The translations under genes and the position numbers were made by a program. From Escherichia coli O127:H6 str. E2348/69 (GTDB taxonomy: Bacteria > Pseudomonadota > Gammaproteobacteria > Enterobacterales > Enterobacteriaceae): a DNA stretch of 64,000 nucleotides. How positions within the stretch are numbered: position 1 is the first letter of the stretch; the number at the start of each line of letters is the position of its first letter. The stretch lies in the NCBI RefSeq assembly GCF_000026545.1, contig NC_011601.1; one strand, 5' to 3'. Positions 30,628 through 36,645 of the stretch are shown here, one piece after another. The notes under the pieces were generated by a model, which saw only the letters and a program-made list of their open reading frames with translations, ran no database searches and had not been told where the DNA came from.

Positions 30628-33600
30628 TTATATCTGCCCGCCTACACCTTTAAACTTCTCAATAAACGCGACGATCTTCTGGAAAACCGTCTGTTTTTTC
30701 GTCTTATATTGCGGGTTTAACGGACTGAGTTTTGGCAATGTCTCGTTTAATTCCGTGCCATTTTCGGTGGCGTATTCGCGTTTTAAAGACGTGCGAATAT
30801 AGCGTTTCGCCGCCTCTTCATTGAGATTTTCTTCTTTAATCAACGCTTCTGCTTCACGTTGCTGTTCGCGTTGAGCAAAGGTAAAGAACGCGTCAATGAT
30901 GCTGGCTTTATCCGGCAAATCATCCAGGTTCGTTTGCTGAATAAAATCGACCACCAATCCTTCTTTAGCACGGTTCCCAAGGCTTGAACGAATTAAGCGT
31001 TTGACCTCTTCGGTCATTTCGCCCTTACCTTTGTTTTGTCTGTTGTGTTCGAAAATCAGTCCAAGGATATAATCCAGGTTTATTTCCTGAGACTTCAGCA
31101 AATCGACCTCAAAAACCACGTCATCCCAGTCGGTGGTTGATTTTTCTTTTTTGTCAGCTTCTTTCTCACGGCGCTGCCAGTCACGAATATCGTTATAGGC
31201 AGAACGATAATCCTGAATCTTGCGTTCAGCAGGGAGACGAATCGTTTGCAATTCAGCGAACTTTTCATCATCCACATAATGTTCTGCTTTGAATTTTTCT
31301 ACTGCAACAGGATCGCTAAGATCGATTTGTTGCAGGGCTTTCAGCGTGGCAAATTCATCATAGTTTTGCAGGATGTTCTCGGCACGCAGGTATTCACCAA
31401 ACAGTTTAACGAAGTCTTTCTTCTCTTTTTCACTTTCAATACTGGCAGGGTCAGGGAACCGTTGTTCCAGTTCTGCAACTACTGCCATAAAGCCGCGCTT
31501 AGCTTCACCAGTAGCAGCATCAGTAAAGCCTTCCATATACTCTGCATAACTCTTTTCTAACACTACATTTTTGGTGTTTTTGTCACCAAACAACGTTATG
31601 GCATCGATGGTTGAGCGTTCCAGATCGCGGAAAGTGACGATATTACCGAAGGTTTTAGTAGCGTCATAAATGCGGTTGGTGCGGGAAAATGCCTGCATCA
31701 GGCCGTGAAAACGCAAGTTTTTATCGACGAATAGCGTGTTCAATGTTGGAGCGTCGAAGCCGGTTAAAAACATCCCCACGACAATTAATAGATCGATATC
31801 CTGATTTTTAACCCGTTGGGCTAAATCACGATAGTAGTTCTGAAAACCGTTACTGTCGGTGCTGAAGTTAGTTTTAAAATAGCTGTTATACTCACGAATT
31901 GCAGCATCAAGAAACTCTTTAGCACTGCTGTCCATTGCGCTGGTATCAAAAGTTTCATCAGAAATTTCACCAATGGCATTTTGTTCTTCATTGGCGGTAA
32001 AGGAGAAGATTGTCGCAATACGCAGCGGTTTATAGGTAGCCGATTTATTAGCGGCTTCTTCTTGTAACCGTTTAAACGTCGCATAATAGGCTTTCGCGGC
32101 ATCCACGCTGCTCACTGCCAACATAGCATTAAAACCTTTTGAGCCAGGGAAGGTACGGTGGGTTTTCTGGCGGAAATTATTCAGAATATATTGCGTGATT
32201 TCCTGAATACGCATGGGATGAAGAAACGCCTGCTGATTTTCAGCCGCACTTAGTTTTTTCTCGTCAGTTTCTGTCTCTAAAGACTTAAACTGTGGTCGCA
32301 CATCGTTGTAGTCCACCTTGAATTTGAGCACTTTTTCGTCACGAATCGCATCGGTAATTACATACGAATGCAATTCACGACCAAATACGCTGGCGGTTGT
32401 TTCTGAGCCTAAGGCGTTTTCCGGGAAAATAGGGGTGCCGGTAAAACCAAACTGATAATAGCGTTTGAATTTCTTCTTCAGGTTTTTCTGCGCTTCTCCA
32501 AACTGGCTGCGGTGGCATTCATCAAATATAAACACCACTTGCTGATTATATACAGGCAGGTCGCTTTCTGCTTTCATCAGGTTATTGAGTTTCTGAATAG
32601 TAGTGACGATAATTTTGTTATCGTCCTTATCCAGATTTCGTTTAAGGCCTGCGGTATTTTCCGAGCCGTTGACGCTGTCTGGCGAAAAACGCTGATATTC
32701 CTTCATGGTCTGGTAATCGAGGTCTTTCCTGTCGACCACAAAGAAGACTTTATCAATAAAGTCCAGCTCTGTTGCCAGACGCGCGGCTTTAAAGCTGGTG
32801 AGGGTTTTACCAGAACCGGTAGTGTGCCAGATATACCCACCGCTTTCCGGTTTTGACCAGTTCTTCGCTGTAAAGGAACTCTTAATTTTCCACAGAATGC
32901 GCTCGGTGGCGGCAATCTGGTACGGTCGCATCACCAGTAGCGTCTGACTACTGTCAAAAACGCTGTAGTTCACCAGAACATTCAGCAGAGTATGTTTCTG
33001 GAAAAAGGTAGCGGTAAAGTCTTTGAGGTCTTTAATCAGCGTGTTGTCTGATTTCGCCCAGTTCATGGTGAAGTCAAAACTGTTTTTATCGCGCTTTGTC
33101 GTGTTGGCAAAATAACGGGTATCGGTGCCGTTAGAAATGACAAACAGTTGCAGATACTTAAACAGGGAATTTTCGCTGTTAAAACTCTCTTTACTGTAAC
33201 GATGTATCTGGTTGAAAGCCTCACGAATCGCCACCCCGCGTTTTTTTAGTTCGATTTGCACCAGCGGTAAACCATTAACCAGGATCGTGACGTCATAACG
33301 GTTAGCATGAGAACCCGTCTGTTCAAACTGCTGGATAATCTGCACCTTATTGCGCATGAGATTCTTTTTATCTATCAAATAGATGTTCTCAAGTCGCCCG
33401 TCGTCAAAAATAAAGTCGCAGATATAGTCGATATGGATTTTACGGGTTTTATCCAGAATACCATCGCTGGGGTTGTCCAGATACTGCTCCGTGAAGCGCC
33501 GCCACTCGCTGTCATTAAACATCACACCATTGAGGCTCTGAAGCTGTTCCCGAACATTAGACAGCATTGCCGACTGTGATTTTACGGAAATAAATTCATA

Positions 33601-33744
33601 ACCCTGATTCCGCAGGTCCTGAATCAGTTCACGTTCCAGGTCCGATTCGCTCTGGTAGCTGTCGCTTGTTTGCTCAGCTTTGATGTACTTATCAAGGACG
33701 ATAAAGTTATTGGATTCAGCAATGGTGTGTGTTTGATGAGTCAT
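30628..33744 (-). CDS. hsdR: Type I restriction enzyme R subunit (type IC, EcoR124-family)
   Basis: 1038-aa ORF beginning [22 protein letters not shown]; helicase motifs TTGSGKT and DECH; matches EcoR124I HsdR length and N-terminus from memory. Confidence 0.92.
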
Positions 33745-33865: not shown

Positions 33866-35092
33866 TTAATTACTGACAGTTTCAGGTTTCGGGAAACTGA
33901 ACAGTAAATCACGGTAGTATTCGTATTGTTTCTGGCGCAACTCGATTTCACGCGGGAGACCTTCAGTGATGGAGTTGGTCAGGGTGTCGAATTTATCGAG
34001 TATTTCGACAATGCGAGCTTGTTCTTCTGAAGGTGGTACAGGTATTGGGAATTTTAAAAACATTGGTCGACGAAGTGAGGTAACCGATGAACTTACTGAT
34101 GCTTTTTGAATATAGGTAAAAAAATATGCTGTTATATAGTGATATACAAATCGCGGATTCATAAATGCATTTGGGACAATACGATATGCTCTCTGATGCA
34201 AAGCATATTTACCTTTAGCGTAATGAAATACCTTCCCCACCCCGGCACCATCTCCAGCTGTAATGATTGCTGTTTCATCAAAATCAAATACATTTAACTT
34301 TAATGGCTCACGTCCACGTGCATAAAAAATATATTTGCCATGTTCTATAGCATCTTGCGTATCATGGTTACCTGTTCCTATAACAGCCACTTCCCCCAAA
34401 GTCTTCCACTCAACCTCACCCTCTTTAAAACTCAACAACTGGTCACGATAGTAGTTGTACTGTTTTTTACGCATGTTAAGCTCAGCGGTAAGCTCAGCGG
34501 TAAGCTCAGCGGTAAGTGCAGTAAATTTATCCAGAATCCGAACGATTTCAGACTGGATGGCAAGGGATTTCTCCGGATTATCCGGGCAGGGGATGGGGAT
34601 TAAGAGCTTTTTTAGGTCGCCCATTGGTAGACTAATTACCGGGTTGCCGACAATTTTTTTGCTATAGTCTTTAACTATTTTACTTGATTGTAATAAATAC
34701 GATAAAAATCTAGGCGCAATTTTTTCCTTAATTGGTTTGATAGTGTAAACGCCTTCTTTGATATTCCAATTTATAGGATTTTCTTCAATTACCGCGATGC
34801 GTCCAACCGTGCCGGTTCCGGAGAACAATATATCTCCAGCTTCTAAATTAGAACGACCATTTATTATTTTTAATGCTCTATCATTTACTCTGTCTGTTTT
34901 ATCAAGAAAGACAACTTTGCCATTCTGGATCTCACGAACAGTTACGTAATATCCTTGGGCATCTAATGTATTTAAGCTAAAATTTTGGCGTGGGTTCAAT
35001 CCCGTTTTTAAGGAATGGATAACTTCTCCCAACATCTTCCACTCAACCTCAACCCCATCCAGCAATTTTCCCAGATAACTTAACTCGCTCAT
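33866..35092 (-). CDS. hsdS: Type I restriction-modification specificity subunit (type IC) with three TAEL repeats in the central conserved region
   Basis: 408-aa ORF; conserved N-terminal ([18 protein letters not shown]), central ([38 protein letters not shown]) and C-terminal ([38 protein letters not shown]) type IC regions; variable TRDs. Confidence 0.9.
34479..34514 (-). repeat. Three tandem copies of a 12-bp repeat encoding TAEL in hsdS
   Basis: agctcagcggta x3 on the plus strand, equal to (ACC GCT GAG CTT)x3 on the coding strand. Confidence 0.95.
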
Positions 35093-36645
35093 TTTTGCAC
35101 CTCGCAGCCTTCAATTTCAGCCACAATCGCATCAATATCTTTACGCAACTGGTCGATTTTGCTAACCGTAGTTTTAAGCTCTGCATTTAGCTCAGCAATA
35201 TTGATAATTTCGCGGTTATCTTTCGCTTCTACATAGCAGCTCACCGACAGGTTATAGTCATTAGCGACAACGGTCTCAAACGCGACAGATTTCGCCAGAT
35301 GAGCAACATCTTCCTTGCTGGCAAATACCTGCATAATCTGTTCGATATGGGCATCGGTCAGGATATTGTTGTTGGTCTCTTTTTTGAATAGTTCGCTGGC
35401 ATCAATAAACTGAACTTTGGTATCCGTTTTATGTTTAGACAGCACCAGAATATTTACGGCAATGGTGGTGCCAAAGAACAGGTTCGGTGCCAGTGAAATC
35501 ACGGTTTCGACATAGTTATTGTCAACCAGATACTGACGGATTTTCTGCTCCGCGCCGCCACGGTAAAAAATGCCCGGGAAGCAGACAATCGCAGCACGAC
35601 CTTTGGCAGAAAGATAGTTCAGCGCATGTAATACAAACGCAAAGTCAGCTTTGGATTTGGGGGCCAGAACGCCAGCCGGGGCAAAACGCTCATCGTTAAT
35701 CAGCGTCGGGTCATCGCTGCCAATCCATTTCACCGAATACGGCGGGTTAGAAACGATGGCATCAAACGGTTTTTCATCTCTGAAGTGCGGCTCAGTCAGC
35801 GTATTGCCCAGCTTGATATCAAACTTGTCGTAGTTGATGTTGTGCAAAAACATGTTCATACGTGCCAGGTTATAGGTCGTATGGTTGATTTCCTGTCCGA
35901 AAAAGCCTTCTTCAATGATATGGTTATCAAACTGCTTTTTAGCCTGCAACAACAGTGAGCCGGAACCCGCTGCCGGGTCGTAGATTTTGTTAACGTTGGT
36001 CTGCCCGTGCATAGCCAGTTGTGCAATCAGCTTGGAGACGTGCTGCGGTGTAAAGAACTCACCGCCTGACTTACCGGCATTTGCCGCATAGTTAGAAATC
36101 AGGAACTCATAGGCATCACCGAACAGGTCAATCTGATGTTCGTTGAAGTTACCAAGTTTTAACCCTTCAACCCCTTTCAGAACCGCAGCCAGGCGGGCAT
36201 TTTTATCTTTAACGGTGTTACCCAGGCGGTTACTGGTGGTATCGAAATCAGCAAACAAACCTTTGATGTCTGCTTCTGAAGGGTAGCCGTAAGCAGAACT
36301 TTCGATAGCAACGAAGATGCTGTTTAAATCTGCATTCAGTCTGTCATTGGTATTTGCTTTCGCCGCTACGTTGCAGAAAAGCTGACTGGGGTAGATGAAG
36401 TAGCCTTTAGTTTTGATGGCATCGTCTTTAATATCATCAGTAATTACGCTGTCATCCAGTTTCGCATAACAGATACTGTCATCACCGGCTTCAATATAGC
36501 TGGAAAAATTTTCGCTGATAAAACGGTAGAAAAGCGCGCCCAGAACGTATTGCTTAAAATCCCATCCATCGACCGAACCTCTGACATCGTTAGCAATTTG
36601 CCAGATTTGGCGATGAAGCTCCGCGCGCTGCTGAAGACTGGTCAT
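35089..36645 (-). CDS. hsdM: Type I restriction-modification N6-adenine DNA methyltransferase subunit
   Basis: 518-aa ORF with NPPY catalytic motif ([10 protein letters not shown]) and AdoMet-binding motif; stop overlaps hsdS start (ATGA). Confidence 0.92.

Follow-up and report, generated by a model that had tools for sequence, protein, structure and literature searches.

What does the type I restriction-modification (R-M) system of Escherichia coli O127:H6 str. E2348/69 recognise, and how does it relate to the EcoR124 enzymes that it resembles? The system is encoded within the 64,000-nucleotide stretch of chromosome analysed here (hereafter, the window; contig NC_011601.1) by three genes on the minus strand: hsdM (35089-36645; 518 aa), for a type IC N6-methyladenine (m6A) methyltransferase subunit; hsdS (33866-35092; 408 aa), for the specificity subunit; and hsdR (30628-33744; 1038 aa), for the translocase and endonuclease subunit. 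PADLOC identified them as MTase_I, Specificity_I and REase_I, respectively. An original prediction, made from the sequence alone, had described an EcoR124-like type IC system with the gene order M-S-R and an HsdR of 1038 aa, and the open reading frame (ORF) listing returned exactly this order, at exactly the coordinates predicted, and this length. We consider it very probable that the locus encodes a true and apparently functional R-M system of type IC, member of a known family. What is new here, as judged by alignment, is a pair of target-recognition domains (TRDs) distinct from those of EcoR124, combined with a rare spacer of three TAEL repeats, whereas the presence of type IC systems at the tRNA gene leuX, the shuffling of TRDs and changes in TAEL copy number are already established.

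Subunit kinship and target-recognition domains

Membership of the type IC family rests on sequence together with complementation and cross-reacting antibodies (PMC3874165). Typical members also have an hsdR promoter of their own, methylate a bipartite site (m6A) and, using ATP, cleave DNA at a distance from it. Its prototype, EcoR124, is carried by plasmids R124 and R124/3, in contrast with the window locus, which is chromosomal and located at leuX. Both systems share the M-S-R order and an HsdR of equal length, and the window HsdR could be aligned over its full length with that of EcoR124I (PDB 2w00, 1038 aa; 2266 bits), with 19 differences counted within the displayed residues 1-1010, while HsdM differs from EcoR124 HsdM (7bst_D) at 6 of 518 residues. 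With identities of ~98% for HsdR and ~99% for HsdM, the proposed type IC membership and EcoR124 kinship hold. The chromosomal location was also correctly predicted, the 6.5-kb hsd region matching the chromosome of the enteropathogenic E. coli (EPEC) O127:H6 strain E2348/69 with 100% identity; it is not remarkable for a type IC system, since type IC DNA matches in complete E. coli genomes fell at 2,302 chromosomal versus 779 plasmid places.

The specificity subunit tells a different story. HsdS matches EcoR124 HsdS (7bst_A) only at residues 1-25, 163-250 and 297-408, which correspond to the type IC conserved regions that the original prediction had recognised and which are identical in both systems. 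The two TRDs are sequence-unrelated to those of EcoR124I/II, as had been anticipated: neither TRD1 (34598-35038, minus strand; ~residues 19-165), predicted to read the 5' half-site, nor TRD2 (34004-34393, minus strand; ~residues 234-363), predicted to read the 3' half-site, could be aligned with 7bst_A. The central conserved region between them, which contains the spacer helix (34394-34597, minus strand), equals that of EcoR124 except for its number of repeats. Since both TRDs differ from those of EcoR124, the half-sites would be different as well, so that the target cannot be GAA N6/7 RTCG, the sequence recognised by EcoR124I/II, and the locus should recognise another motif. The TRD pair may define a recognition sequence outside the characterised set; identity with a characterised enzyme, which would have contradicted the original prediction, is ruled out for EcoR124I/II and unlikely for EcoprrI (see below).

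Each of the two domains recurs in other combinations. TRD1 is found with a different TRD2 in one HsdS allele (P0040) and in the second position in another (P0039), and TRD2 accompanies a different TRD1 in a third one (P0018), present on 155 contigs. The half-gene matches from other strains overlap at the HsdS central conserved region, which is therefore a likely recombination joint. Among complete E. coli genomes (n = 5,426), only five contained the complete pair, namely three E2348/69 assemblies and two Z1323HEC strains.

The TAEL spacer and its two-repeat counterpart

The spacer helix contains a tandem 12-bp repeat, ACCGCTGAGCTT (34477-34516, minus strand), with three full units whose codons occupy positions 34478-34513; Tandem Repeats Finder described the tract as having a period of 12, 3.3 copies and a 100% match. 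The TAEL repeat DNA is the same in the EcoR124 system, being identical to the EcoR124II repeat as read from published mutagenesis primers (PMC10644984), and the window HsdS, like that of EcoR124II, has three TAEL repeats. In EcoR124I/II and in EcoR124/EcoDXXI hybrids, the number of TAEL repeats sets the gap between the two half-sites, with two repeats giving N6 and three giving N7; EcoprrI and EcoDXXI each have three (PMC3874165). The third repeat, which was missed in the original prediction, is the most informative feature of the locus. The three-repeat state is rare: among 222 type IC HsdS proteins fetched, we counted two repeats in 206, a single one in 14 and three in only two. A three-repeat variant, P0001, reads TAEI-TAEI-TAEL. 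We likened the window system also to EcoDXXI, encoded on plasmid pDXX1, by description only, as a type IC system with three TAEL repeats. The EcoDXXI target is TCA N7 RTTC. PDB 7bst chain A is named "EcoR124II specificity protein" yet has 404 aa and two TAEL repeats, that is, the EcoR124I form, so names alone can mislead on spacer length.

Close relatives of the window HsdS nearly all have 404 aa and two repeats. One of them is a two-TAEL allele of 404 aa with the same TRDs (P0002), which is much commoner than the window allele (143 contigs) and occurs, for example, in strain Z1323HEC0423, at the same leuX position and with the same flanking genes. Its hsdS is identical to that of E2348/69 over 1,215 nt, and along the 1,227 bp of the E2348/69 gene we counted no substitution, the sole difference being one 12-bp unit. 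Thus, a single repeat gain or loss separates the two alleles, and the one with fewer repeats has a predicted gap 1 bp shorter. Together they parallel, in nature, the EcoR124I/EcoR124II (N6/N7) pair, and this natural variation would allow a clean test of how helix length sets the gap, with a TRD pair beyond those used in the work of the 1980s and 1990s. The IncY, P1-like plasmid pLR-13_1 carries a three-repeat HsdS identical to that of the window at 407 of 408 residues.

The genes on either side of hsdS differ more between the two strains, with 65 substitutions in hsdR and 19 in hsdM. These substitutions are clustered, a pattern suggestive of recombination in patches around an hsdS segment that came to be shared recently. 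When counted in 250-bp blocks, they concentrate at 30654-30900 and 32654-32900, in hsdR, and at 35900-36950, which covers the 5' portion of hsdM together with sequence upstream of it; the ~2.5 kb around hsdS show 0-1 differences from the two-TAEL strain.

Allele pairs that are distinct only in TAEL number were found in at least five TRD combinations, and the TAEL repeats of the window are perfect. Both observations, together with the reported interconversion of EcoR124 and EcoR124/3 via unequal crossing-over at the TAEL repeat (PMC3874165), would be compatible with an actively switching contingency locus, in which N6/N7 flips generate epigenetic or defence heterogeneity. Nevertheless, we regard active switching as very unlikely, since all three independent E2348/69 assemblies have three repeats and both Z1323HEC strains have two, and slippage would be expected to be infrequent with three copies of a 12-bp unit. 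We also put forward, tentatively and as a rather doubtful scenario, that the third repeat may reflect either an N6 to N7 change that took place recently in the lineage of E2348/69 (O127:H6) or exchange with a phage-plasmid related to P1. Such an event could have created a new DNA-exchange barrier and a new methylation pattern with respect to its closest relatives, with reversible switching possible and the TRD pair representing a new recognition sequence.

Integrity and predicted activity

Based on the 98-99% identity to the solved EcoR124 enzyme, an M2S1 complex would methylate adenines in both half-sites of a bipartite target, and an R2M2S1 complex would translocate and cut unmethylated DNA. 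The two TRDs would set the half-sites, and the spacer helix, extended by its third TAEL repeat, would make the gap 1 bp longer than that of the two-TAEL allele with the same TRDs (N7 versus N6). HsdR retains the nuclease residues D151, E165 and K167 and the motor motifs GSGKT and DECH intact, and HsdM contains DPAAGSG and NPPYS; these motifs were assigned according to established work on EcoR124I. Most of the substitutions that distinguish HsdR and HsdM from EcoR124 are common to other natural alleles, and the exact HsdM protein occurs on 130 public contigs and the exact HsdR protein on 73, which argues against decay. At the level of sequence, the hsd genes show no sign of it.

Several points weigh against this reading. 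The assignment of N6 and N7 predicts the gap by extrapolation from other TRD pairs. Our attempt to predict the half-sites from cross-family TRD similarity, built on EcoKI reading GTGC and EcoprrI reading RTGC, was uninformative, with only marginal, fold-level BLAST matches. A scan of the hsd region for promoters and terminators gave site counts at the shuffled-sequence background, and a full-text literature search retrieved no usable E2348/69 methylome, activity data or REBASE-style enzyme names. Surveys of type I systems and an ST131 methylome cover neither type IC systems nor the E2348/69 hsd locus.

The background-level promoter scan, and the restriction alleviation known in type IC systems (PMC12707154), would also be compatible with a locus that is intact in sequence but silent in restriction, either modification-only or unexpressed, and maintained as a methyltransferase or a passenger. 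However, the three full-length ORFs with their intact catalytic motifs, the natural occurrence of most substitutions and the conservation of identical proteins on many contigs make such silence very unlikely, and favour a functional system. E2348/69 is the reference EPEC strain and is genetically manipulated in many laboratories, where an active type IC system would affect transformation, conjugation efficiency and phage host range. Beyond this practical value and the allele pair described above, the locus adds no new biology.

hsdS and hsdM overlap by 4 nt, and hsdS is separated from hsdR by a 121-bp intergenic region (33745-33865, minus strand), which is 100% identical in Z1323HEC0423 and pLR-13_1 and in which the ORF listing contained no ORF. 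It harbours a promoter-like site with a 9-of-12 match (33838-33809), possibly serving hsdR, although the number of such sites equals the shuffled expectation. The same interval is the slot occupied by prrC in EcoprrI-type loci, empty here, which bears on the identity of the system.

EcoprrI and the prrC cassette

EcoprrI, from E. coli CT596, is encoded by prrA-prrB-prrC-prrD and its target is CCA N7 RTGC. Could the window system be EcoprrI itself, or an isoschizomer, having lost the gene for the anticodon nuclease PrrC? The two have much in common: both are type IC, the window HsdM is 98% identical to PrrC-linked HsdM, some prr loci lie in the same leuX/DUF4942/McrB context as the window locus (see below), and EcoprrI likewise has three TAEL repeats (PMC3874165). 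Moreover, the nearly identical HsdS of pLR-13_1 is annotated as "type I restriction endonuclease EcoprrI subunit S". Nonetheless, this is an automatic annotation label; exact-sequence look-ups and two large protein searches retrieved only generic S-subunit names and no S protein named after EcoprrI, and a tblastn search of PrrC-linked HsdS against plasmids, which tested how specific the label is, yielded generic annotations only.

In prr loci, prrC lies between hsdS and hsdR, in contrast with the window locus, which has no prrC gene or remnant there; with canonical PrrC as tblastn query, no PrrC similarity was detected in the whole 64-kb window. For comparison, we searched for prr-type loci with a query that spans the junction, which led to an hsdM-hsdS-PrrC-hsdR locus and then to the full set of E. 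coli genomes that carry prrC (21 of the 5,426 complete ones). The PrrC of one of them (L004) is the UniRef100 sequence represented by the Swiss-Prot entry PRRC_ECOLX and contains KYGDSNKSFSY, presumably the published PrrC peptide. The HsdS alleles that adjoin the exact Swiss-Prot PrrC have 377, 383, 395 and 405 aa, and those that adjoin PrrC variants have 385, 387 and 407 aa. Neither TRD1 nor TRD2 of the window matches any of these seven PrrC-linked alleles, which served as stand-ins for S.EcoprrI itself.

The flanks of the empty slot also differ from those of prr loci. Homology between the window and the prr loci ends ~15 nt short of the hsdS stop codon and restarts inside hsdR. The window HsdS ends in ETVSN, versus ...PEVAEA in the four canonical-type PrrC loci checked (L004, L005, L006 and L014), and residues 1-145 of the window HsdR are only 62% identical to the N-terminal module common to these four. 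The HsdS C-terminus and the HsdR N-terminus of the window are thus EcoR124-type, not prr-type, and we rejected a loss of prrC by simple deletion. This homology break and the EcoR124-type flanks indicate that the cassette is EcoR124-type and, with the TRD mismatches, leave EcoprrI identity highly unlikely.

All four of these canonical-type PrrC loci combine the alternative HsdR module at residues 1-145 with a sequence ~99% EcoR124-like beyond it. The mobile prrC cassette appears, from these alignments, to run from the last hsdS codons into hsdR (~codon 145), and the alternative HsdR N-terminal module could matter for the masking of PrrC by the restriction complex. A locus with a more distant PrrC homologue of 414 aa (L003) has mostly kept the EcoR124-type HsdR N-terminus.

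The leuX island and the plasmid cassettes

The hsd locus lies between leuX (tRNA-Leu-CAA, 15258-15342) and the nan/fim genes, in a region whose G+C content is 39-47% across the hsd genes versus 53-58% upstream of ~27,500. Its neighbourhood corresponds to "hotspot 37", a defence island at leuX for which type IC systems are reported in 4% of E. coli isolates (PMC12707154). In E2348/69, hsdR is separated from the tRNA gene by a ~15-kb integrative element (15343-30403), bounded by the leuX 3' end and a 30-nt copy of it (30374-30403, plus strand), a direct repeat of 15313-15342 that constitutes the attR of the insertion. In Z1323HEC0423 (L018), by contrast, hsdR directly adjoins leuX, with identical downstream sequence and without the 15-kb insertion. 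The 30-nt copy and this direct contact imply that the integrase-bearing element inserted between the tRNA gene and the hsd cassette in E2348/69, and positions 30374-30403 mark the original contact of the cassette with leuX. The element encodes an integrase (29028-30239), AbiTii (28038-28940), a serine recombinase/invertase, a DEAD-box helicase, HNH and other endonucleases, and a homologue of a major head protein (phrog_267). As no portal or terminase is annotated in it, it looks like an island of the phage-satellite type.

On the hsdM side, a divergent gene for a DUF4942 protein (36952-37785), without any PADLOC match, is the neighbour of hsdM in all the chromosomal type IC loci at leuX that we examined (the window, L004, L008-L013 and L015-L018), while the plasmid type IC cassettes examined lack it. 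It is followed by an McrBC-like pair, composed of an McrB-family protein of 684 aa and McrC (38147-41508), by an HNH restriction endonuclease that binds phosphorothioated DNA (41571-42443) and by a pseudogene for an HNH endonuclease, interrupted by an internal stop (~42580-43230).

Homology between the plasmid and the E2348/69 chromosome is bounded by the hsdR stop and the hsdM start; owing to these limits, the cassette behaves as a self-contained unit that can be exchanged. In P1-like (IncY) phage-plasmid loci (L002, L005, L006 and L014), type IC cassettes, with or without prrC, are found beside phd/doc and a DUF968 gene.

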